DNA of 36,924 bases from a virus. Its lineage: Duplodnaviria > Heunggongvirae > Uroviricota > Caudoviricetes. Position 1 is the first letter of the stretch. Every line of letters starts with the position of its first letter. This document shows positions 4,162-36,924 of this stretch, piece after piece. The stretch lies in the IMG/VR virus record IMGVR_UViG_2645727715_000002; one strand, 5' to 3'. The notes under the pieces are model-generated. The model was not told the origin of the DNA. It did not search any database and saw nothing but the letters and a program-made list of their open reading frames with translations. The position numbers and the translations under genes are program-made.

Positions 4162-4188
4162 AAAAAAATCGCCCTCACATTAGAGGGC
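4162..4188 (-). terminator. Candidate rho-independent terminator in the leftward (pL) transcript between ral and ea10
   Basis: Stem gccctc (4171-4176) / gagggc (4183-4188) with a 6-nt loop; read on the minus strand it is followed by a 7-T run (A-run 4162-4168 on the plus strand). Confidence 0.45.
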
Positions 4189-10813: not shown

Positions 10814-11337
10814 CTATCAAATCAAATACGCCAGCACACGACAAGGACTGCTGGCAAACGCCGCTTTGGCTTTTTGATGCACTGGATATTGAGTTTGGAT
10901 TCTGGCTGGATTCGGCAGCGAGCGACAAAAATGCTCTGTGTGCTCACTGGCTAACTGAGGCCGACGACGCGCTCAATTCTGAGTGGGTAAGCCACGGTGC
11001 AATCTGGAATAACCCACCGTACAGCAATATCAGGCCGTGGGTGGAAAAAGCCGCTGAGCAGTGCATACAACAGCGACAGACGGTAGTGATGCTTGTGCCA
11101 GAGGATATGTCAGTCGGATGGTTCAGCAAGGCTCTGGAGAGTGTCGACGAAGTTCGCATTATCACTGATGGACGGATTAATTTTATCGAACCATCGACAG
11201 GGTTGGAGAAGAAGGGAAACAGCAAAGGCTCCATGCTGCTGATTTGGCGACCGTTCATCAGTCCTCGACGGATGTTTACTACCGTATCCAAAGCGGCATT
11301 GATGGCGATCGGGCAGGGCGTCAGGAGGGCGGCATGA
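10810..11337 (+). CDS. Phage Dam-like DNA N6-adenine methyltransferase (about 175 aa)
   Basis: Translation from the ATG at 10810 ([26 protein letters not shown]...NPPYSN...) has the NPPY catalytic motif of N6-adenine methyltransferases; ATGA overlap with the ninB stop; occupies the position of lambda ninC. Confidence 0.7.
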
Positions 11338-16092: not shown

Positions 16093-16377
16093 TTATTGTG
16101 AGCAATACACACGCGCTTCCAGCGGAGTATAAATGCCTAAAGTAATAAAACCGAGAAATCCATTTACGAATGTTTGCTGGGTTTCTGTTTTAACAACATT
16201 TTCTGCGCCGCCACAAATTTTGGCTGCATCAACAGTTTTCTCCTGTCCAATTCCCGAAACGAAGAAATGATGGGTGATGGTTTCCTTTGGTGTTACTGCT
16301 GTCGGTTTGTTTCCAACAGTAAACGTCTGTTGAGCACATCCTGTAATAAGCATTGCCAGAGCGGCAGAAAACAACAT
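16093..16377 (-). CDS. bor: Bor lipoprotein (serum-resistance homolog)
   Basis: MLFSAALAMLITGCAQQTFTVGNKPTAVTPKETITHHFFVSGIGQEK... with lipobox LITGC; a further upstream ATG (16383-16385) is out of frame by one base. Confidence 0.8.
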   Translation of the reverse strand: MLFSAALAMLITGCAQQTFTVGNKPTAVTPKETITHHFFVSGIGQEKTVDAAKICGGAENVVKTETQQTFVNGFLGFITLGIYTPLEARVYCSQ

Positions 16378-16745
16378 TTTTTCATCTTATTATCCTGCAT
16401 TGTTAAAAACGGCAGAATCCTATGTGACAACAATTAAACGATAGTTAAATGGATTGATGAAAATTAAAACTATATAGGTGGATGCTCAGCCTATTGGAGG
16501 AGGGGGGGGCACTCAGAATCCTGTGGAATGAAATAAACCGCTCTTTCTGTCCATTACCCTTTTAGCTGCGCTGTATCGTCGCCGTATTCCCGCATTAACC
16601 ATGACCGTAGCCCGACGGGGAATTCCTTCTGCGTGAGTGTGCGGGAATAATCAAAACGATGCACACCGGGTTTTACTGTGCTGACAGACGCAGGGTTACC
16701 CTCATAGTCGCTTTTCCGGTGCGATGGTGGAAGAAACCGGGATGT

Positions 16746-16940: not shown

Positions 16941-17099
16941 GAGGTTGTCCCGTATTCAGTGTCGCTGATTTGTATTGTCTGAAGTTGTTTTTACGTTAAG
17001 TTGATGCAGATCAATTAATATGATACCTGCGTCATAATTGATTATTTGACGTGGTTTGATGGCGTAGATGCACGTTGTGACATGCAGATGATAATTATT

Positions 17100-17329
17100 A
17101 TCATTTTGCGGGTCCTTTCCGGCGATCCGACAGGTTACGGGGCGGCGACCTCGCGGGTTTTCGCTATTTATGAAAATTTTCCGGTTTAAGGCATTTCCGT
17201 TCTTCTTCGTTGTAACTTAATGTTTTTATTTAAAATACCCCCTGAAAAGAAAGGAAACGACAGGTGCTGAAAACGGGCTTTTTTGGCCTCTGTCGTTTCC
17301 TTTCTCTGTTTTTGTCCGTGGAATGAACA
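17100..17329. other. cos region (cosQ-cosN-cosB); cosN 12-nt cohesive-end sequence GGGCGGCGACCT at 17140-17151
   Basis: The cohesive-end sequence and flanking bases (…acggggcggcgacctcgcgggttttcgctatttatgaaaattttccggtttaaggc…) match lambda cos as recalled; sits immediately upstream of Nu1. Confidence 0.8.
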
Positions 17330-17849
17330 ATGGAAGTCAACAAAAAGCAGCTGGCTGACATTTTCGGTGCGAGTATCCGTACCATTCAGAACTGGCAGGA
17401 ACAGGGAATGCCCGTTCTGCGAGGCGGTGGCAAGGGTAATGAGGTGCTTTATGACTCTGCCGCCGTTATAAGATGGTATGCCGAAAGGGATGCTGAAATT
17501 GAGAACGAAAAGCTGCGCCGGGAAGTTGAAGAACTGCGGCAGGCCAGCGAGACAGATCTCCAGCCAGGGACTATTGAGTACGAACGCCATCGACTTACGC
17601 GTGCGCAGGCCGACGCACAGGAACTGAAGAATGCCAGAGACTCCGCTGAAGTGGTGGAAACCGCATTCTGTACTTTCGTGCTGTCGCGGATCGCAGGTGA
17701 AATTGCCAGTATTCTCGACGGGATCCCCCTCTCGGTGCAGCGGCGTTTTCCGGAACTGGAAAACCGACATGTTGATTTCCTGAAACGGGATATCATCAAA
17801 GCCATGAACAAAGCAGCCGCGCTGGATGAACTGATACCGGGGTTGCTGA

Positions 17850-17875
<26 letters not shown>
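17330..17875 (+). CDS. nu1: Terminase small subunit Nu1, 181 aa
   Basis: MEVNKKQLADIFGASIRTIQNWQEQGMPVLRGGGKGNEVLYDSAAVI... matches lambda Nu1. Confidence 0.95.
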
Positions 17876-21557
<3,682 letters not shown>

Positions 21558-21577
<20 letters not shown>

Positions 21578-22877
21578 TCTCCCGCATATTGCCAGTATGG
21601 CCTTTAATGAGCCGCTGATGCTTGAACCCGCCTATGCGCGGGTTTTCTTTTGTGCGCTTGCAGGCCAGCTGGGGATCAGCCGCCTGACGGATGCGGTGTC
21701 CGGTGACAGCCTGACTGCCGGAGAGGCACCCGCGACGCTGGCGTTATCCGGTAATGATGACGGGCCACGACAGGCCCGCAGTTATCAGGTCATGAACGGC
21801 ATCGCCGTGCTGCCGGTGTCCGGCACGCTGGTCAGCCGGACGCGGGCGCTGCAGCCGTACTCGGGGATGACCGGTTACAACGGCATTATCGCCCGTCTGC
21901 AACAGGCTGCCAGCGACCCGATGGTGGACGGCATTCTGCTCGATATGGACACGCCAGGCGGAATGGTGGCGGGGGCATTTGACTGCGCTGACATCATCGC
22001 CCGTGTGCGAGACATAAAACCGGTATGGGCGCTGGCCAACGACATGAACTGCAGTGCAGGTCAGCTGCTTGCCAGTGCCGCCTCCCGGCGTCTGGTCACG
22101 CAGACCGCCCGGACAGGCTCCATCGGCGTCATGATGGCTCACAGTAATTACGGTGCTGCCCTGGAGAAACAGGGGGTGGAAATCACGCTGATTTACAGCG
22201 GCAGCCATAAGGTGGATGGCAATCCCTACAGCCATCTTCCGGATGACGTCCGGGAGACACTGCAGTCCCGGATGGACGCAACCCGCCAGATGTTTGCGCA
22301 GAAGGTGTCGGCATATACCGGCCTGTCTGTGCAGGCTGTGCTGGATACCGAGGCTGCAGTGTACAGCGGTCAGGAGGCCATTGATGTCGGACTGGCTGAT
22401 GAACTTGTTAACAGCACCGATGCGATCACCGTCATGCGTGATGCACTGGATGCGCGTAAATCCCGTCTCTCAGGAGGGCGAATGACCAAAGAGACTCAAT
22501 CAACAACTGTTTCAGCCACTGCTTCGCAGACTGACGTTACTGACGTGGTGCCAGCGACGGAGGGCGAAAACGCCAGCGCGGCGCAGCCGGACGTGAACGC
22601 GCAGATCACCGCTGCGGTTGCGGCAGAAAACAGCCGCATTATGGGGATCCTCAACTGTGAGGAGGCTCACGGACGCGAAGAACAGGCCCGCGTGCTGGCA
22701 GAAACCCCCGGTATGACCGTGGAAACGGCCCGCCGCATTCTGGCAGCTGCACCACAGAGTGCACAGGCGCGCAGTGACACTGCGCTGGATCGTCTGATGC
22801 AGGGGGCACCGGCACCGCTGGCTGCAGGTAACCCGGCATCTGATGCCGTTAACGATTTGCTGAACACACCAGTGTAA
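21558..22877 (+). CDS. C: Capsid assembly protease C (with in-frame nested scaffold Nu3 at its 3' end), GTG start
   Basis: From GTG 21558 (GAGGAG RBS upstream) the translation VTAELRNLPHIASMAFNEPLMLEPAYARVFF… matches lambda gpC; the upstream extension of the ORF lies inside B and is not coding. Confidence 0.85.
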
Positions 22878-22886
22878 GGGATGTTT

Positions 22887-23220
22887 ATGACGAGCAAAGA
22901 AACCTTTACCCATTACCAGCCGCTGGGCAACAGTGACCCGGCACATACGGCAACCGCGCCCGGCGGATTGAGTGCGAAAGCGCCTGCAATGACCCTGCTG
23001 ATGCTGGACACCTCCACCCGTAAGCTGGTTGCGTGGGATGGCACCACCGACGGTACTGCCGTTGGCATTCTGGCGGTTGATGCTGACCAGACCAGCACCA
23101 CGCTGACGTTCTACAAGTCCGGCACGTTCCGTTATGAGGATGTGCTCTGGCCGGAGGCTGCCAGCGACGAGACGAAAAAAACGGACCGCGTTTGCCGGAA
23201 CGGCAATCAGCATCGTTTAA
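22887..23220 (+). pseudogene. D: Head decoration protein D with a +1 frameshift near the C-terminus (A7 run 23175-23181)
   Basis: [27 protein letters not shown]… matches lambda gpD to …DETKK, then leaves frame; the expected ending [12 protein letters not shown]-stop is encoded in the +1 frame ending 23218-23220. Confidence 0.75.
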
Positions 23221-23269
23221 CCTTACCCTTCATCACTAAAGGCCGCCTGTGCAGCTATTTACGATTTTT

Positions 23270-24295
23270 ATGTCGATGTACACAACCGCCCAGCTGCTGG
23301 CGGCAAATGAGAAGAAATTTAAGTTTGATCCGCTGTTTCTGCGTCTCTTTTTCCGTGAGAGCTATCCCTTCACCACGGAGAAAGTCTATCTCTCACAAAT
23401 TCCGGGACTGGTAAACATGGCGCTGTACGTTTCGCCGATTGTTTCCGGTGAGGTTATCCGCTCCCGTGGCGGCTCCACCTCTGAATTTACACCGGGATAT
23501 GTCAAGCCGAAGCATGAGGTGAATCCGCAGATGACCCTGCGTCGCCTGCCGGATGAAGATCCGCAGAATCTGGCGGACCCGGCTTACCGCCGCCGTCGCA
23601 TCATCATGCAGAACATGCGAGACGAAGAGCTGGCCATTGCTCAGGTCGAAGAGATGCAGGCAGTTTCTGCTGTGCTTAAGGGCAAATACACCATGACCGG
23701 TGAAGCCTTCGATCCGGTTGAGGTGGATATGGGCCGCAGTGCGGCGAACAACATCACACAGTCCGGTGGTACGGAGTGGAGCAAGCGTGACAAGTCCACG
23801 TATGACCCGACCGACGATATCGAAGCCTATGCGCTGAACGCCAGCGGAGTGGTGAATATCATCGTGTTTGATCCGAAAGGCTGGGCGCTGTTCCGTTCCT
23901 TCAAAGCCGTCAAGGAGAAGCTGGATACCCGTCGCGGCTCTAATTCCGAGCTGGAGACAGCGGTAAAAGACCTGGGCGAAGCGGTGTCCTATAAGGGGAT
24001 GTATGGCGATACGGCGATCGTCGTGTATTCCGGACAGTACGTGGAAAACGACGTCAAAAAGAACTTCCTTCCGGACAACACGATGGTGCTGGGGAACACT
24101 CAGGCACGCGGTCTGCGCACCTATGGCTGCATTCAGGATGCGGACGCACAGCGCGAAGGTATTAACGCCTCTGCCCGCTACCCGAAAAACTGGGTGACCA
24201 CCGGCGATCCGGCGCGTGAGTTCACCATGATTCAGTCAGCACCGCTGATGCTGCTGGCTGACCCTGATGCGTTCGTGTCCGTACAACTGGCGTAA
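23270..24295 (+). CDS. E: Major capsid protein E, 341 aa
   Basis: [41 protein letters not shown]… matches lambda gpE. Confidence 0.95.
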
Positions 24296-24336
24296 TCATG
24301 GCCCTTCGGGGCCATTTTCTCTCTGTGGAGGAGTCT

Positions 24337-24732
24337 ATGACGAAAGATGAACTGATTGCCCGTCTTCAGGTGCTGGGTGAGCAACTGAACCGTGATGTCA
24401 GCCTGACGGGGACGAAAGAAGAACTGGTGCTCCGTGTGGCAGAGCTGGAAGAGGAGCTTGATGACACGGATGACGCTGCCGGTCAGGACACATCTGTCAG
24501 CCCGGAAAATGCGCTGACCGGACATGAAAATGAGGTGGTATCAGCGCAGCCGGATACCGTGATTGATACGGCTGCTCTGGTCACGGTCGTGGCACTGGTG
24601 ACGCTGCATACTGATGCACTTCACGCCACGCGGGATGAGCCTGTGGCATTTGTGCTGCCGGGAACGGCGTTTCGTGTCTCTGCCGGTGTGGCAGCCGAAA
24701 TGACAGAACATGGCCTGGCCAGAATGCAATAA
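24337..24732 (+). CDS. FI: DNA packaging protein FI
   Basis: MTKDELIARLQVLGEQLNRDVSLTGTKEEL… matches lambda FI; GGAGG RBS upstream. Confidence 0.85.
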   Translation: MTKDELIARLQVLGEQLNRDVSLTGTKEELVLRVAELEEELDDTDDAAGQDTSVSPENALTGHENEVVSAQPDTVIDTAALVTVVALVTLHTDALHATRDEPVAFVLPGTAFRVSAGVAAEMTEHGLARMQ

Positions 24733-24743
24733 CGGGAGGCGCT

Positions 24744-25097
24744 GTGGCTGATTCCGATAACCTGTTCGATGCTGCCATTGCCCGCGCCGATGAAACGATA
24801 CGCGGGTACATGGGAACGTCAGCCACCATGACATCCGGTGAGCTGTCCGGTGCTGTGATACGTGGTGTTTTTGATGACCCTGAAAATATCAGCTATGCCG
24901 GACAGGGGGTGCGCGTTGAAGGCTCCAGCCCGTCCCTGTTTGTCCGGACTGATGATGTGCGGCAGCTGCGGCGTGGAGACACACTGACCATCGGCGAGGA
25001 AAACTTCTGGGTGGACCGGATTTCGCCGGATGATGGCGGAAGCTGTCATCTCTGGCTTGGGCGTGGCGTGCCGCCTGCCGTTAACCGTCGCCGCTGA
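24744..25097 (+). CDS. FII: Head completion protein FII, 117 aa
   Basis: Translation matches lambda FII. Confidence 0.9.
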   Translation: MADSDNLFDAAIARADETIRGYMGTSATMTSGELSGAVIRGVFDDPENISYAGQGVRVEGSSPSLFVRTDDVRQLRRGDTLTIGEENFWVDRISPDDGGSCHLWLGRGVPPAVNRRR

Positions 25098-25108
25098 AAG
25101 GGGGATGT

Positions 25109-25687
25109 ATGGCCATAAAAGGTCTTGAGCAGGCCGTTGAAAACCTCAGCCGTATCAGCAAAACGGCGGTGCCTGGTGCCGCCGCAATGGCCATTAACCG
25201 CGTTGCGTCATCCGCGATATCGCAGTCTGCGTCACAGGTTGCCCGTGAGACAAAGGTACGCCGGAAACTGGTAAAGGAAAGGGCCAGGCTGAAAAGGGCC
25301 ACGGTCAAAAATCCGCAGGCCAGAATCAGGGTTAACCGGGGGGATTTGCCCGTAATCAAGCTGGGTAACGCGCGGGTTGTCCTTTCCCGCCGCAGACGTC
25401 GTAAAAAGGGGCAGCGTTCATCCCTGAAAGGTGGCGGCAGCGTGCTTGTGGTGGGAAACCGTCGTATTCCCGGCGCGTTTATTCAGCAACTGAAAAATGG
25501 CCGGTGGCATGTCATGCAGCGTGTGGCCGGGAAAAACCGTTACCCCATTGATGTGGTGAAAATCCCGATGGTGGTGCCGCTTACCACGGCGTTTAAACAG
25601 AATATTGAACGGATACGGCGTGAACGTCTTCCGAAAGAGCTGGGCTATGCGCTGCAGCATCAACTGAGAATGGTAATAAAGCGATGA
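25109..25687 (+). CDS. Z: Tail completion protein Z, 192 aa
   Basis: Translation matches lambda Z. Confidence 0.9.
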   Translation: MAIKGLEQAVENLSRISKTAVPGAAAMAINRVASSAISQSASQVARETKVRRKLVKERARLKRATVKNPQARIRVNRGDLPVIKLGNARVVLSRRRRRKKGQRSSLKGGGSVLVVGNRRIPGAFIQQLKNGRWHVMQRVAGKNRYPIDVVKIPMVVPLTTAFKQNIERIRRERLPKELGYALQHQLRMVIKR

Positions 25688-26079
25688 AACATACTGAACT
25701 CCGTGCAGCCGTACTGGATGCACTGGAGAAGCATGACACCGGGGCGACGCTTTTTGATGGTCGCCCCGCTGTTTTTGATGAGGCGGATTTTCCGGCAATT
25801 GCCGTTTATCTCACCGACGCTGAATACACGGGCGAAGAGCTGGACAGTGATACCTGGCAGGCGGAGCTGCATATTGAAGTTTTCCTGCCTGCTCAGGTGC
25901 CGGATTCAGAGCTGGATTCGTGGATGGAGTCCCGGATTTATCCGGTGATGAGCGATGTCCCGGCACTGTCAGATTTGATCACCAGTATGGTGGCCAGTGG
26001 CTATGACTACCGGCGCGACGATGATGCGGGCCTGTGGAGTTCAGCCGATCTGACTTATGTCATTACCTATGAAATGTGA
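25684..26079 (+). CDS. U: Tail terminator protein U, 131 aa
   Basis: Translation matches lambda U; overlaps the Z stop. Confidence 0.9.
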
Positions 26080-26086
26080 GGACGAT

Positions 26087-26827
26087 ATGCCTGTACCAAA
26101 TCCAGTAATGCCGGTGAAAGGGGCCGGGACCACACTGTGGGTTTATAAGGGGAACGGTGACCCTTATGCGAACCCGCTTTCAGACGTTGACTGGTCGCGT
26201 CTGGCTAAAGTTAAAGACCTGACGCCCGGCGAACTGACCGCTGAGTCCTATGACGACAGCTATCTCGATGATGAAGATGCGGACTGGACTGCGACCGGGC
26301 AGGGGCAGAAATCTGCCGGAGATACCAGCTTCACGCTGGCGTGGATGCCCGGAGAGCAGGGGCAGCAGGCGCTGCTGGCGTGGTTTAATGAAGGGGATAC
26401 CCGTGCCTATAAAATCCGCTTCCCGAACGGCACGGTCGATGTGTTCCGCGGCTGGGTCAGCAGTATCGGTAAGGCGGTGACGGCGAAGGAAGTGATCACC
26501 CGCACGGTGAAAGTCACCAACGTGGGACGTCCGTCGATGGCAGAAGATCGCAGCACGGTAACAGCGGCAACCGGCATGACCGTGACGCCTGCCAGCACTT
26601 CGGTGGTGAAAGGGCAGAGCACCACGCTGACCGTGGCATTCCAGCCGGAAGGCGCAACCGACAAGAGCTTCCGTGCGGTGTCTGCGGATAAAACAAAAGC
26701 CACCGTGTCGGTCAGTGGTATGACCATCACCGTGAAAGGTGTTGCTGCAGGCAAGGTCAACATTCCGGTTGTATCCGGTAATGGTGAACTTGCTGTGGTT
26801 GCAGAAATCACCGTCACCGACAGTTAA
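26087..26827 (+). CDS. V: Major tail protein V, 246 aa
   Basis: [22 protein letters not shown]… matches lambda V, including the C-terminal Ig-like domain. Confidence 0.9.
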
Positions 26828-26842
26828 TCCGGAGAGTCAGCG

Positions 26843-27265
26843 ATGTTCCTGAAAACCGAATCATTTGAATATAACGGTGTGAGCGTCACGCTTTCTGAAC
26901 TGTCAGCCCTGCAGCGAATTGAGCATCTCGCCCTGCTGAAACGGCAGGCAGAACAGGCGGAGTCAGACAGCAACCGGAAGTTTACTGTGGAAGACGCCAT
27001 CAGAACCGGCGCGTTTCTGGTGGCGATGTCCCTGTGGCATAACCATCCGCAGAAGACGCAGATGCCGTCCATGAATGAAGCCGTTAAACAGATTGAGCAG
27101 GAAGTGCTTACCACCTGGCCCACGGAGGCAATTTCTCATGCTGAAAACGTGGTGTACCGGCTGTCTGGTATGTATGAGTTTGTGGTGAATAATGCCCCTG
27201 AACAGACAGAGGACGCCGGGCCCGCAGAGCCTGTTTCTGCGGGAAAGTGTTCGACGGTGAGCTGA
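26843..27265 (+). CDS. G: Tail assembly chaperone G, 140 aa
   Basis: Translation matches lambda G. Confidence 0.9.
   Translation: MFLKTESFEYNGVSVTLSELSALQRIEHLALLKRQAEQAESDSNRKFTVEDAIRTGAFLVAMSLWHNHPQKTQMPSMNEAVKQIEQEVLTTWPTEAISHAENVVYRLSGMYEFVVNNAPEQTEDAGPAEPVSAGKCSTVS
27241..27247 (+). other. Programmed -1 ribosomal frameshift slippery heptamer G GGA AAG (G to G-T fusion)
   Basis: GGGAAAG in the correct phase near the 3' end of G, with the T reading frame open in the -1 frame downstream; this is the canonical lambda G-T recoding site. Confidence 0.85.
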
Positions 27266-27681
27266 GTTTTGCCCTGAAACTGGCGCGTGAGATGGGGCGA
27301 CCCGACTGGCGTGCCATGCTTGCCGGGATGTCATCCACGGAGTATGCCGACTGGCACCGCTTTTACAGTACCCATTATTTTCATGATGTTCTGCTGGATA
27401 TGCACTTTTCCGGGCTGACGTACACCGTGCTCAGCCTGTTTTTCAGCGATCCGGATATGCATCCGCTGGATTTCAGTTTGCTGAACCGGCGTGAGGCTGA
27501 CGAAGAGCCTGAAGATGATGTGCTGATGCAGAAAGCGGCAGGGCTTGCCGGAGGTGTCCGCTTTGGCCCGGACGGGAATGAAGTTATCCCTACTTCCCCG
27601 GATGTGGCGGACATGACGGAGGATGACGTAATGCTGATGACAGTATCAGAAGGGATCGCAGGAGGAGTCCGGTATGGCTGA
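27247..27681 (+). CDS. T: Tail assembly chaperone T portion of the G-T frameshift product
   Basis: The -1 frame ORF downstream of the slippery site matches lambda T. Confidence 0.8.
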   Translation: MFDGELSFALKLAREMGRPDWRAMLAGMSSTEYADWHRFYSTHYFHDVLLDMHFSGLTYTVLSLFFSDPDMHPLDFSLLNRREADEEPEDDVLMQKAAGLAGGVRFGPDGNEVIPTSPDVADMTEDDVMLMTVSEGIAGGVRYG

Positions 27682-30235
27682 ACCGGTAGGCGATCTGGTC
27701 GTTGATTTGAGTCTGGATGCGGCCAGATTTGACGAGCAGATGGCCAGAGTCAGGCGTCATTTTTCCGGTACGGAAAGTGATGCGAAAAAAAACAGCGGCA
27801 GTCGTTGAACAGTCGATGAACCGGCAGGCGCTGGCTGCACAGAAAGCGGGAATTTCCGTCGGGCAGTATAAAGCCGCCATGCGTATGCTGCCTGCGCAGT
27901 TCACTGACGTGGCCACGCAGCTTGCAGGCGGGCAAAGTCCGTGGCTGATCCTGCTGCAACAGGGGGGTCAGGTGAAGGACTCCTTCGGCGGGATGATCCC
28001 CATGTTCCGGGGGCTTGCCGGTGCGATCACCCTGCCGATGGTGGGGGCCACCTCGCTGGCGGTGGCGACCGGTGCGCTGGCGTATGCCTGGTATCAGGGC
28101 AACTCAACCCTGTCCGATTTCAACAAAACGCTGGTCCTTTCCGGCAATCAGGCCGGGCTGACGGCAGATCGTATGCTGGTCCTGTCCAGAGCCGGGCAGG
28201 CGGCAGGGCTGACGTTTAACCAGACCAGCGAGTCACTCAGCGCACTGGTTAAGGCGGGGGTAAGCGGTGAGGCTCAGATTGCGTCCATCAGCCAGAGTGT
28301 GGCGCGTTTCTCCTCTGCATCCGGCGTGGAGGTGGACAAGGTCGCTGAAGCCTTCGGGAAGCTGACCACTGACCGACGTCGGGCGTGACAGCGATGGCGC
28401 GCCAGTTCCATAACGTGACGGCGGAGCAGATTGCGTATGTTGCTCAGTTGCAGCGTTCCGGCGAAGAAGCCGGGGCATTGCAGGCGGCGAACGAGGCCGC
28501 GACGAAAGGGTTTGATGACCAGACCCGCCGCCTGAAAGAGAACATGGGCACGCTGGAAACCTGGGCAGACAGGACAGCACGGGCATTCAAATCCATGTGG
28601 GATGCGGTGCTGGATATTGGTCGTCCTGATACCGCGCAGGAGATGCTGATTAAGGCAGAGGCCGCGTTTAAGAAAGCGGACGATATCTGGAATCTGCGCA
28701 AGGATGATTATTTTGTTAACGATGAAGCGCGGGCGCGTTACTGGGATGATCGTGAAAAGGCCCGTCTTGCGCTTGAAGCCGCCCGAAAGAAGGCTGAGCA
28801 GCAGAGTCAACAGGACAAAAATGCGCAGCAGCAGAGCGATACCGAAGCGTCACGGCTGAAATATACCGAAGAGGCGCAGAAGGCTTACGAACGGCTGCAG
28901 ACGCCGCTGGAGAAATATACCGCCCGTCAGGAAGAACTGAACAAGGCACTGAAAGACGGGAAAATCCTGCAGGCGGATTACAACACGCTGATGGCGGCGG
29001 CGAAAAAGGATTATGAAGCGACGCTGAAAAAGCCGAAACAGTCCGGCGTGAAGGTGTCTGCGGGCGATCGTCAGGAAGACAGTGCTCATGCTGCCCTGCT
29101 GACGCTTCAGGCAGAACTCCGGACGCTGGAGAAGCATGCCGGAGCAAATGAGAAAATCAGCCAGCAGCGCCGGGATTTGTGGAAGGCGGAGAGTCAGTTC
29201 GCGGTACTGGAGGAGGCGGCGCAACGTCGCCAGCTGTCTGCACAGGAGAAATCCCTGCTGGCGCATAAAGATGAGACGCTGGAGTACAAACGCCAGCTGG
29301 CTGCACTTGGCGACAAGGTTACGTATCAGGAGCGCCTGAACGCGCTGGCGCAGCAGGCGGATAAATTCGCACAGCAGCAACGGGCAAAACGGGCCGCCAT
29401 TGATGCGAAAAGCCGGGGGCTGACTGACCGGCAGGCAGAACGGGAAGCCACGGAACAGCGCCTGAAGGAACAGTATGGCGATAATCCGCTGGCGCTGAAT
29501 AACGTCATGTCAGAGCAGAAAAAGACCTGGGCGGCTGAAGACCAGCTTCGCGGGAGCTGGATGGCAGGCCTGAAGTCCGGCTGGAGTGAGTGGGAAGAGA
29601 GCGCCACGGACAGTATGTCGCAGGTTAAAAGTGCAGCCACGCAGACCTTTGATGGTATTGCACAGAATATGGCGGCGATGCTGACCGGCAGTGAGCAGAA
29701 CTGGCGCAGCTTCACCCGTTCCGTGCTGTCCATGATGACAGAAATTCTGCTTAAGCAGGCAATGGTGGGGATTGTCGGGAGTATCGGCAGCGCCATTGGC
29801 GGGGCTGTTGGTGGCGGCGCATCCGCGTCAGGCGGTACAGCCATTCAGGCCGCTGCGGCGAAATTCCATTTTGCAACCGGAGGATTTACGGGAACCGGCG
29901 GCAAATATGAGCCAGCGGGGATTGTTCACCGTGGTGAATTTGTCTTCACGAAGGAGGCAACCAGCCGGATTGGCGTGGGGACTCTTTACCGGCTGATGCG
30001 CGGCTATGCCACCGGCGGTTATGTCGGTACACCGGGCAGCATGGCAGACAGCCGGTCGCAGGCGTCCGGGACGTTTGAGCAGAATAACCATGTGGTGATT
30101 AACAACGACGGCACGAACGGGCAGATAGGTCCGGCTGCTCTGAAGGCGGTGTATGACATGGCCCGCAAGGGTGCCCGTGATGAAATTCAGACACAGATGC
30201 GTGATGGTGGCCTGTTCTCCGGAGGTGGACGATGA
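27674..30235 (+). pseudogene. H: Tail tape-measure protein H, interrupted by a +1 (A8 run) and a -1 (CC) frameshift (or sequencing errors)
   Basis: ATG 27674 gives MAEPVGDLVVDLSLDAARFDEQMARVRRHFSGTESDAKK then a stop; the lambda-matching sequence continues in frame 0 (27717..28388) and again in frame 2 (28385..30235); junctions at A8 run 27785-27792 and CC 28373-28374. Confidence 0.85.
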
Positions 30236-30561
30236 AGACCTTCCGCTGGAAAGTGAAACCCGGTATGGATGTGGCTTCGGTCCCTTCTGTAAGAAAGGTG
30301 CGCTTTGGTGATGGCTATTCTCAGCGAGCGCCTGCCGGGCTGAATGCCAACCTGAAAACGTACAGCGTGACGCTTTCTGTCCCCCGTGAGGAGGCCACGG
30401 TACTGGAGTCGTTTCTGGAAGAGCACGGGGGCTGGAAATCCTTTCTGTGGACGCCGCCTTATGAGTGGCGGCAGATAAAGGTGACCTGCGCAAAATGGTC
30501 GTCGCGGGTCAGTATGTTGCGTGTTGAGTTCAGCGCAGAGTTTGAACAGGTGGTGAACTGA
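30232..30561 (+). CDS. M: Tail tip protein M, 109 aa
   Basis: Translation matches lambda M. Confidence 0.9.
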   Translation: MKTFRWKVKPGMDVASVPSVRKVRFGDGYSQRAPAGLNANLKTYSVTLSVPREEATVLESFLEEHGGWKSFLWTPPYEWRQIKVTCAKWSSRVSMLRVEFSAEFEQVVN

Positions 30562-31259
30562 TGCAGGATATCCGGCAGGAAACACTGAATGAATGCACCC
30601 GTGCGGAGCAGTCGGCCAGCGTGGTGCTCTGGGAAATCGACCTGACAGAGGTCGGTGGAGAACGTTATTTTTTCTGTAATGAGCAGAACGAAAAAGGTGA
30701 GCCGGTCACCTGGCAGGGGCGACAGTATCAGCCGTATCCCATTCAGGGGAGCGGTTTTGAACTGAATGGCAAAGGCACCAGTACGCGCCCCACGCTGACG
30801 GTTTCTAACCTGTACGGTATGGTCACCGGGATGGCGGAAGATATGCAGAGTCTGGTCGGCGGAACGGTGGTCCGGCGTAAGGTTTACGCCCGTTTTCTGG
30901 ATGCGGTGAACTTCGTCAACGGAAACAGTTACGCCGATCCGGAGCAGGAGGTGATCAGCCGCTGGCGCATTGAGCAGTGCAGCGAACTGAGCGCGGTGAG
31001 TGCCTCCTTTGTACTGTCCACGCCGACGGAAACGGATGGCGCTGTTTTTCCGGGACGTATCATGCTGGCCAACACCTGCACCTGGACCTATCGCGGTGAC
31101 GAGTGCGGTTATAGCGGTCCGGCTGTCGCGGATGAATATGACCAGCCAACGTCCGATATCACGAAGGATAAATGCAGCAAATGCCTGAGCGGTTGTAAGT
31201 TCCGCAATAACGTCGGCAACTTTGGCGGCTTCCTTTCCATTAACAAACTTTCGCAGTAA
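30561..31259 (+). CDS. L: Tail tip protein L, 232 aa
   Basis: Translation matches lambda L, including the C-terminal Cys cluster. Confidence 0.9.
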   Translation: MQDIRQETLNECTRAEQSASVVLWEIDLTEVGGERYFFCNEQNEKGEPVTWQGRQYQPYPIQGSGFELNGKGTSTRPTLTVSNLYGMVTGMAEDMQSLVGGTVVRRKVYARFLDAVNFVNGNSYADPEQEVISRWRIEQCSELSAVSASFVLSTPTETDGAVFPGRIMLANTCTWTYRGDECGYSGPAVADEYDQPTSDITKDKCSKCLSGCKFRNNVGNFGGFLSINKLSQ

Positions 31260-31264
31260 ATCCC

Positions 31265-32008
31265 ATGACACAGACAGAATCAGCGATTCTGGCGCACGCC
31301 CGGCGATGTGCGCCAGCGGAGTCGTGCGGCTTCGTGGTAAGCACGCCGGAGGGGGAAAGATATTTCCCCTGCGTGAATATCTCCGGTGAGCCGGAGGCGT
31401 ATTTCCGTATGTCGCCGGAAGACTGGCTGCAGGCAGAAATGCAGGGTGAGATTGTGGCGCTGGTCCACAGCCACCCCGGTGGTCTGCCCTGGCTGAGTGA
31501 GGCCGACCGGCGGCTGCAGGTGCAGAGTGATTTGCCGTGGTGGCTGGTCTGCCGGGGGACGATTCATAAGTTCCGCTGTGTGCCGCATCTCACCGGGCGG
31601 CGCTTTGAGCACGGTGTGACGGACTGTTACACACTGTTCCGGGATGCTTATCATCTGGCGGGGATTGAGATGCCGGATTTTCATCGCGAGGATGACTGGT
31701 GGCGTCACGGTCAGAATCTCTATCTGGATAATCTGGAGGCCACAGGGCTGTATCAGGTGGCGTTGTCAGCGGCGCAGCCGGGCGATGTGCTGCTGTGCTG
31801 TTTTGGTTCATCGGTGCCGAATCATGCCGCCATTTACTGTGGTGACGGTGAGCTGCTGCACCATATTCCTGAACAACTGAGTAAACGAGAGAGGTACACC
31901 GACAAATGGCAGCGACGCACACACTCCCTCTGGCGTCACCGGGAATGGCACGCATCTGCCTTTACGGGGATTTGCAACGATTTGGCCGCCGCATCGACCT
32001 TCGTGTGA
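31265..32008 (+). CDS. K: Tail tip assembly protein K (full ORF 247 aa; an internal ATG at 31409 would give 199 aa)
   Basis: The HSHP motif of a JAB/MPN-type domain lies in the N-terminal part, followed by an NlpC/P60-like region; matches lambda K. Confidence 0.8.
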   Translation: MTQTESAILAHARRCAPAESCGFVVSTPEGERYFPCVNISGEPEAYFRMSPEDWLQAEMQGEIVALVHSHPGGLPWLSEADRRLQVQSDLPWWLVCRGTIHKFRCVPHLTGRRFEHGVTDCYTLFRDAYHLAGIEMPDFHREDDWWRHGQNLYLDNLEATGLYQVALSAAQPGDVLLCCFGSSVPNHAAIYCGDGELLHHIPEQLSKRERYTDKWQRRTHSLWRHREWHASAFTGICNDLAAASTFV

Positions 32009-32577
32009 AAACGGGGGCTGAAGCCATCCGCGCACTGGCCACACAGCTCCCGGCGTTTCGTCAGAAACTGAGCGACGGCTGGTATCAGGTACGGATTGCC
32101 GGGCAGGATGTCAGCACGTCCGGATTAACGGCGCAGTTACATGAGACTCTGCCTGATGGCGCTGTGATTCATATTGTTCCCAGAGTCGCCGGGGCCAAGT
32201 CAGGTGGCGTATTCCAGATTGTCCTGGGAGCAGCCGCCATTGCCGGATCATTCTTTACCGCCGGAGCCACCCTTGCAGCATGGGGGGCAGCCATTGGGGC
32301 CGGTGGTATGACCGGCATCCTGTTTTCTCTCGGTGCCAGTATGGTGCTCGGTGGTGTGGCGCAGATGCTGGCACCGAAAGCCAGAACTCCCCGTACACAG
32401 ACAACGGATAACGGCAAACAGAACACCTATTTCTCCTCACTGGATAACATGGTTGCCCAGGGCAATGTTCTGCCTGTTCTGTACGGTGAAATGCGCGTGG
32501 GGTCACGCGTGGTTTCTCAGGAGATCAGCACGGCAGACGAAGGGGATGGTGGTCAGGTTGTGGTGATTGGTCGCTGA
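31906..32577 (+). CDS. I: Tail tip assembly protein I, 223 aa
   Basis: Translation matches lambda I; overlaps the 3' end of K by 103 nt. Confidence 0.9.
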   Translation: MAATHTLPLASPGMARICLYGDLQRFGRRIDLRVKTGAEAIRALATQLPAFRQKLSDGWYQVRIAGQDVSTSGLTAQLHETLPDGAVIHIVPRVAGAKSGGVFQIVLGAAAIAGSFFTAGATLAAWGAAIGAGGMTGILFSLGASMVLGGVAQMLAPKARTPRTQTTDNGKQNTYFSSLDNMVAQGNVLPVLYGEMRVGSRVVSQEISTADEGDGGQVVVIGR

Positions 32578-32634
32578 TGCAAAATGTTTTATGTGAAACC
32601 GCCTGCGGGCGGTTTTGTCGTTTATGGAGCGTGA

Positions 32635-36121
<3,487 letters not shown>

Positions 36122-36188
36122 ATGTTATAACCCAGAACGGGCGTCAGAAATGACGCCTTTTTTTATTGCAGAAAAGCGAGAGGTAATT

Positions 36189-36788
36189 ATGCGTAAACTT
36201 TATGCCGCCATTTTGTCCGCAGCCATTTGTCTGGCCGTATCCGGTGCGCCTGCATGGGCGTCTGAACATCAGTCCACGCTGAGCGCGGGGTATCTTCATG
36301 CCCGGACGAACGTTCCCGGCAGTGATGATCTGAACGGGATTAACGTGAAATACCGTTATGAGTTTACGGACACACTGGGGCTGGTGACGTCATTCAGCTA
36401 TGCAGGAGACAAGAATCGCCAGCTTACCCGTTACAGCGATACCCGCTGGCATGAAGATTCAGTGCGTAACCGCTGGTTCAGCGTGATGGCGGGGCCGTCT
36501 GTACGCGTGAATGAATGGTTCAGCGCGTATGCGATGGCGGGTGTGGCTTACAGCCGTGTGTCGACTTTCTCCGGGGATTATCTCCGCGTAACTGACAACA
36601 AGGGGAAAACGCACGACGTGCTGACCGGAAGTGATGACGGTCGCCACAGCAACACGTCTCTGGCGTGGGGAGCTGGCGTGCAGTTTAACCCGACCGAATC
36701 CGTGGCCATTGATATTGCTTATGAAGGCTCCGGCAGTGGCGACTGGCGCACTGACGGTTTCATCGTGGGTGTCGGTTATAAGTTCTGA
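36189..36788 (+). CDS. lom: Lom outer-membrane protein (Ail/Lom family)
   Basis: [59 protein letters not shown]… matches lambda Lom; ends in an aromatic residue (…VGVGYKF). Confidence 0.9.
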
Positions 36789-36815
36789 TTAGCCAGGTAA
36801 CACAGTGTTATGACA

Positions 36816-36842
36816 GCCCGCCGGTTCAGGCGGGCTTTTTTT
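36816..36842 (+). terminator. Rho-independent terminator downstream of lom
   Basis: Stem gcccgcc (36816-36822) / ggcgggc (36829-36835) followed by TTTTTTT. Confidence 0.65.
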
Positions 36843-36853
36843 GTGGGGTGAAT

Positions 36854-36924
36854 ATGGCAGTAAAGATTTCAGGTGTACTGAAAGACGGCACAGGAAAACC
36901 GGTACAGAACTGCACAATCCAGCT
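36854..36924 (+). CDS. stf: Side tail fibre Stf, N-terminus only (runs off window end)
   Basis: ATG 36854 gives MAVKISGVLKDGTGKPVQNCTIQ…, matching the lambda stf (orf401) start. Confidence 0.75.
   Translation, partial: MAVKISGVLKDGTGKPVQNCTIQ

Follow-up and report, generated by a model that had tools for sequence, protein, structure and literature searches.

Opposite one-base length differences in the tape-measure gene H of an Escherichia coli prophage contig are most likely sequencing errors

A lambda-type tape-measure gene in three fragments

The window, by which we mean the whole 36,924-nt stretch of DNA that was analyzed, is the entire contig LEKZ01000085.1 of assembly GCA_001038025.1, from Escherichia coli D92/09. 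It carries a lambda-type tail tape-measure gene, H, that aligns over 100% of its length with its lambda counterpart (J02459, 10542-13103) at 98.7% nucleotide identity; with H of ET245 and of 2018-01-1CC, the identity is 99.65%. ORF layout, called genes, and lambda annotation place H as in lambda, with V, G, and T upstream and M, L, K, I, and J downstream. No single ORF spans the gene as deposited; it is read as fragments of 44, 202/223, and 616 aa, compared with the ~853 codons expected (Table 1). The middle and C-terminal fragments match the Pfam families TMP_2 and Tape_meas_lam_C, respectively.

Two one-base length differences separate these fragments. At the positions equivalent to 27785-27792 and 28373-28374, lambda J02459 and the closest E. 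coli prophages (AR_0077, ET245, and 2018-01-1CC) have A7 and CCC, where the window has A8 and CC. From its ATG, frame 0 runs for 39 lambda-like codons (ending in SDAKK), continues as NSGSR, and closes at a TGA, the first of eight frame-0 stops between 27806 and 28372. The +1 frame carries the gene from codon 40 until frame 0 is picked up again as PTSGVTAMARQ and is read through to the normal stop. The sequence-only reading had described a +1 at A8 and a -1 at CC that leave 39 N-terminal and 616 C-terminal codons in the original frame, with ~195 codons displaced in between; both changes are present where it put them, and its codon counts are correct by frame-by-frame translation. Translation also bore out its view that the three segments are each lambda-H-like, with the coding information kept but non-contiguous. 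With one A taken out and one C put back in silico, H encodes 853 aa with no internal stop, and the repaired protein has 10 aa substitutions relative to lambda gpH and 4 relative to the ET245 protein.

Apart from the A7 tract of H, the coding sequence of the late operon contains just one A7 run, and the CCC of the references forms the left arm of a perfect 12-nt palindrome, CCCGACGTCGGG. Ten nucleotides downstream of CC lies a third change, absent from the sequence-only reading, in which a reference GC is swapped to CG. Together with the extra A and the missing C, this swap accounts for every difference between the first 827 nt of H and AR_0077.

Table 1. Coordinates of gene H, of the one-base indels in the late operon, and of other features in the window
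Feature	Position	Strand	Details
Tail tape-measure gene H, lambda-type	27674..30235	+	2562 nt; two frames, three fragments
A8 run	27785..27792	+	+1 relative to A7 of lambda and closest relatives; H codons 38-40
TGA closing frame 0	27806..27808	+	Five codons past the extra A; 44-aa product from ATG 27674
Middle H fragment, +1 frame	27780..28388	+	H codons 40 to ~233; 202 aa from ATG 27780; Pfam TMP_2
Mechanical ORF of middle H fragment	27717..28388		
CC	28373..28374	+	-1 relative to CCC in all references (C3 to C2); outside A/T runs
CG in place of reference GC	28384..28385	+	GGGGCT to GGGCGT; length unchanged; H residue 238 Leu to Val
C-terminal H fragment, frame 0	28385..30235	+	616 aa from GTG 28385; Pfam Tape_meas_lam_C
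Gene G	26843..27265		
T frame	27247..27681		
GGGAAAG heptamer	27241..27247		Intact, in the G-T overlap
Terminase A	17850..19777		ORFs of 142 and 490 aa, with a short third-frame stretch
Portal B	19977..21577		Split into 135 and 398 aa
D (decoration protein)	22881..23414		110 aa extended to 177 aa
Tail tip protein J	32638..36121		Split into 808 and 378 aa
Indel, intergenic	17279		T5 to T6
Indel, terminase A	18261		A5 to A6
Indel, terminase A	18342		A6 to A7
Indel, portal B	20228		T6 to T5
Indel, D	23175		A6 to A7; near the 3' end
Indel, H	27785		A7 to A8
Indel, J	34993		Extra A; outside A/T runs
Indel, intergenic	36158		T6 to T7
Indel, intergenic	36836		T6 to T7
AC dinucleotide	11021..11022		Missing from XH990
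iss/bor-like lipoprotein gene start	16375..16383	-	T7 to T6 relative to XH990; codons 2-4
D-E intergenic spacer	23257..23266		6-nt net length difference relative to ET245

One-base length differences along the late operon

Aligned with the intact ET245 and 2018-01-1CC prophages, the late operon (17000-36924) is 98.5% identical to them. Over these 20 kb, the window has ten 1-nt indels relative to its intact relatives, eight of which fall in A/T runs where the longer allele is at least 6 nt. Seven of these eight are +1 changes. A run-by-run comparison revealed a 1-nt length change in 6 of the 12 reference A/T runs of at least 6 nt and in 2 of the 38 A/T runs of 5 nt, while none of the 97 A/T runs of 4 nt and none of the 100 G/C runs of at least 4 nt was altered in length. 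Intergenic runs were affected alongside coding ones (17279, 36158, and 36836). As controls, we compared other prophages with ET245 in the same manner: 2018-01-1CC has zero homopolymer indels, and three further clean assemblies (L011, L014, and L016), which are at least as divergent from ET245, have one each over 12-19 kb.

The coding changes break four late genes besides H. Terminase A carries two +1 shifts 81 nt apart and is the same-sign counterpart of the H pair. Portal B is split by the loss of a T, and D runs on into a longer product after an extra A. In J, an extra A converts TTATTAT to TTATATAT, which is not a homopolymer change; it is consistent with over-calling of a zero-length A flow, though it may be real. 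H accounts for 12.9% of the length of the late region, and the probability that at least two of ten indels fall in it is 0.375; the probability that two drawn indels have opposite signs is 0.356. Given these values, and given that terminase A is also doubly shifted, the pair in H is unremarkable on this contig and is no more than expected by chance.

To view the late genes with their indels removed, we mapped the window to the gene coordinates of ET245. In this indel-free projection, all 21 late genes are full length and have 0 internal stops. Substitutions relative to ET245 fall in 195 synonymous and 74 non-synonymous codons across the 21 genes, and broken genes are like the rest in this respect (synonymous/non-synonymous: A, 8/2; B, 19/3; J, 56/22). 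Neither nonsense codons nor IS elements nor deletions were found in the 20-kb late operon, in which 1-nt indels are the only damage. Were the prophage truly without five essential genes, some other decay would be expected. We rejected a long-decayed prophage, because the repaired genes lack stops and synonymous codon changes outnumber non-synonymous ones.

Length differences are not confined to one-base changes in the late operon. Differences of a similar type occur in the early half of the window, at 4162, 5875, 16377, and 16653. The shortened T run at the start of an iss/bor-like lipoprotein gene (ATG AAA AAA ATG; compared with strain XH990) puts the first ATG out of frame, leaving an ORF of 94 aa from an internal Met. 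Elsewhere, XH990 lacks an AC dinucleotide that is present in the window, and its phage N-6-adenine-methyltransferase is annotated as 'frameshifted'; from the sequence, the intact version appears to be the one in the window, so not every indel difference here appears to be a defect. The D-E spacer, which is T-rich, differs from that of ET245 by several substitutions as well as in length, a pattern more suggestive of natural variation than of a single-base miscall.

Occurrence of the H alleles in other genomes

We searched for the H alleles in other genomes. No identical match across either H site was found among 5426 complete E. coli genomes (83-nt and 86-nt queries), and no full-length match in complete E. 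coli genomes shared the CG swap, the best being 96.6% identical over 86 nt. The exact 202-aa and 616-aa products of H are on record only on LEKZ01000085.1. Likewise, the combination of A8 and CC is on record only on this contig; elsewhere, each allele is rare and always alone.

A8 with identical flanks is present in two complete genomes, CP024228 and CP051751, where H carries the PGAP label 'frameshifted' and is net +1. The 44-aa product specific to A8 is found on 54 contigs, some of which are shredded by frameshifts throughout, while others (L011, L014, and L016) have clean late operons. The H backgrounds that carry A8 are only 95.6-98.2% identical to one another. The exact 36-nt pattern across A8 returned 0 matches in GTDB species-representative genomes and 0 in IMG/VR. 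The CC allele alone was found at 1 of 5043 places in complete E. coli genomes, in strain 16843 (CP113503), where both H and gene I are labelled 'frameshifted'. In IMG/VR, the CC pattern is found in one contig (L009); we rejected it as a shared allele because it has A7, a normal GGGGCT, and a separate G3-to-G2 loss, all of which point to an unrelated event or error. The H pseudogenes of CP024228, CP051751, and CP113503 thus have one change only and are net +1 or -1, whereas the window has both. We regard both H sites as hot spots, whether for real slippage or for miscalls.

In prophages with A8 alone, the ATG equivalent to 27780-27782 (GTG ATG CGA AAA AAA ACA) is in frame with the rest of H. 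Three such loci (L010, L011, and L016, at 10107) have an open H ORF of 818-824 aa that is minus 36 N-terminal residues. It is conceivable, if highly improbable, that the extra A is genuine and that the A7 tract at codons 38-40 of lambda-type H acts as a recurrent slippage switch. If so, A8-only prophages would encode an 818-aa H' without those residues, and full-length H might return by transcriptional slippage, making the allele a heritable on/off or tail-length variant. In the window, however, the -1 change would abort H' at 28388, and the pair would be functionless here even with such a switch.

Origin of the two shifts in H

Strain D92/09 was sequenced with Ion Torrent PGM reads only, from a 314 chip that yielded 399,241 reads and 16.5x coverage, and its draft comprises 343 contigs, 5,893 CDS, and 5.08 Mb (PMC4588619). 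Its CDS density is 1.16 per kb, compared with 0.97-0.99 annotated features per kb in four complete relatives, although RAST and PGAP annotation are mixed in this comparison; we infer that the density fits genome-wide gene splitting. Homopolymer over- and under-calls predominate among PGM errors, with A and T flows affected most, and zero-length flows are sometimes over-called (Bragg et al. 2013, PMC3623719). The same study describes 'high frequency indel' errors at ~1 per kb of reference that cause frameshifts in assemblies, and finds a tendency to under-call long homopolymers in raw reads (PMC3623719). The indels of this contig share with Ion Torrent PGM and 454 errors their 1-nt size, a steep rise with run length, a concentration in A/T, a frequency of ~1 per 2-3 kb, and their presence in both coding and intergenic DNA. 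They differ from those in PMC3623719 in being mostly over-calls of long runs, whereas under-calls dominate in that paper.

We consider it likely that the H length differences and the GC/CG swap are Ion Torrent PGM base-calling errors that were kept in a 16.5x draft consensus. A7 would have been over-called as A8 and C3 under-called as C2 in two independent miscalls, and G4-C would have been read as G3-C-G, we infer, through a lagging G signal in flow space. The equal and opposite signs would then be a coincidence among the many such errors on the contig, with no compensation, recoding, or selection at work, and H in the real strain D92/09 is probably intact, with 853 codons. The resequencing proposed in the sequence-only reading, with runs of lambda length at both sites as the result that would refute its frameshifts, fits sequencing error as the cause. 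Two observations stand against miscalls. The +1 bias runs opposite to the under-call trend of the raw reads in PMC3623719 and is left unaccounted for; at a guess, it may be due to later chemistry, the base-caller, or the assembler. Moreover, both alleles are found elsewhere, so real slippage does occur, and in the window either change, or both, could be genuine. We also considered Sanger gel compression, since the C loss and the swap flank the palindrome, and dropped it because the project was Ion Torrent-only; the palindrome may nonetheless contribute to poor signal.

The recurrence of the alleles bears on two explanations in which slippage took place in the phage DNA. We think it unlikely that the origins are mixed, with A8 a genuine recurrent +1 at the longest A run of H and with CC and the CG swap in error, or the reverse. 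The spread of A8 over divergent H backgrounds, its 44-aa product on dozens of contigs, and its presence in assemblies that otherwise have no late-operon homopolymer indels all argue for such an origin. Against it, every one of the closest relatives of this H allele (99.65%) has A7, and several other A/T runs on the contig are over-called by +1, so no separate explanation is needed for A8. That both indels are real is quite unlikely in our judgment. The window would then hold a recently inactivated, decaying lambdoid prophage with slippage frameshifts in H, A, B, D, and J, in which H is a true pseudogene and the signs of its shifts are coincidental. Homopolymer slippage is the commonest natural frameshift too, and the PGAP-labelled H genes described above are shifted at exactly these sites. 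Nevertheless, an absence of any other damage over 20 kb, with a strong signature of purifying selection in the substitutions, argues against a real origin for both. So does the alteration of half of the long A/T runs, intergenic ones included, where clean relatives at similar divergence have 0 or 1 such change. Furthermore, an artefact of exactly this kind is predicted by the platform and the coverage.

The sequence-only reading had called the two shifts compensating. The term holds for the arithmetic, since the opposite signs cancel and leave a net length of 2562 nt, as in lambda H, and it fails for function. The shifted reading is closed, with a frame-0 stop five codons after the insertion and eight stops in the interval, and hence the second shift cannot rescue the first. 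Judged as a Crick-Brenner pair, H has opposite-sign shifts within one gene and lacks an open shifted interval. It is accordingly vanishingly improbable that full-length H is made, whether by intragenic suppression of the Crick type or by programmed slippage, ribosomal or transcriptional, at the two sites. Besides the signs and the net length, two features speak for function: A8 runs belong to the sequences on which RNA polymerase can slip, and G/T, 430 nt upstream, contains a genuine programmed -1 frameshift site, GGGAAAG. In lambda, this slippery heptamer in the G-T overlap directs the programmed -1 ribosomal frameshift of G/GT. Both the G/GT site and the H shifts are frame changes within the tail assembly gene block, but only the former is conserved, relies on a slippery heptamer, and connects two open frames. 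The second H site (GAC CGA CGT) has no slippery run, in contrast to the possible motif at A8. Neither change is conserved, the relatives having A7 and CCC, and where an allele does occur elsewhere, it is single and uncompensated. The same contig also has uncompensated shifts in A, B, D, and J. We rejected a suppressor pair or recoding because frame 0 is stopped, the second site has no slippery motif, and neither change is conserved.

The finding in H is therefore ordinary, and its shifts are most likely errors. Its significance is for quality control only: scans for recoding or compensated pseudogenes will catch such pairs in Ion Torrent, 454, and unpolished long-read drafts. As a rule, the other homopolymers on a contig should be inspected before a frameshift is interpreted; on this contig, half of the long A/T runs differ in length by one base and five late genes are interrupted, with no other damage. 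If the shifts in H were real, they would still be commonplace, a dead tail gene in a defective prophage.
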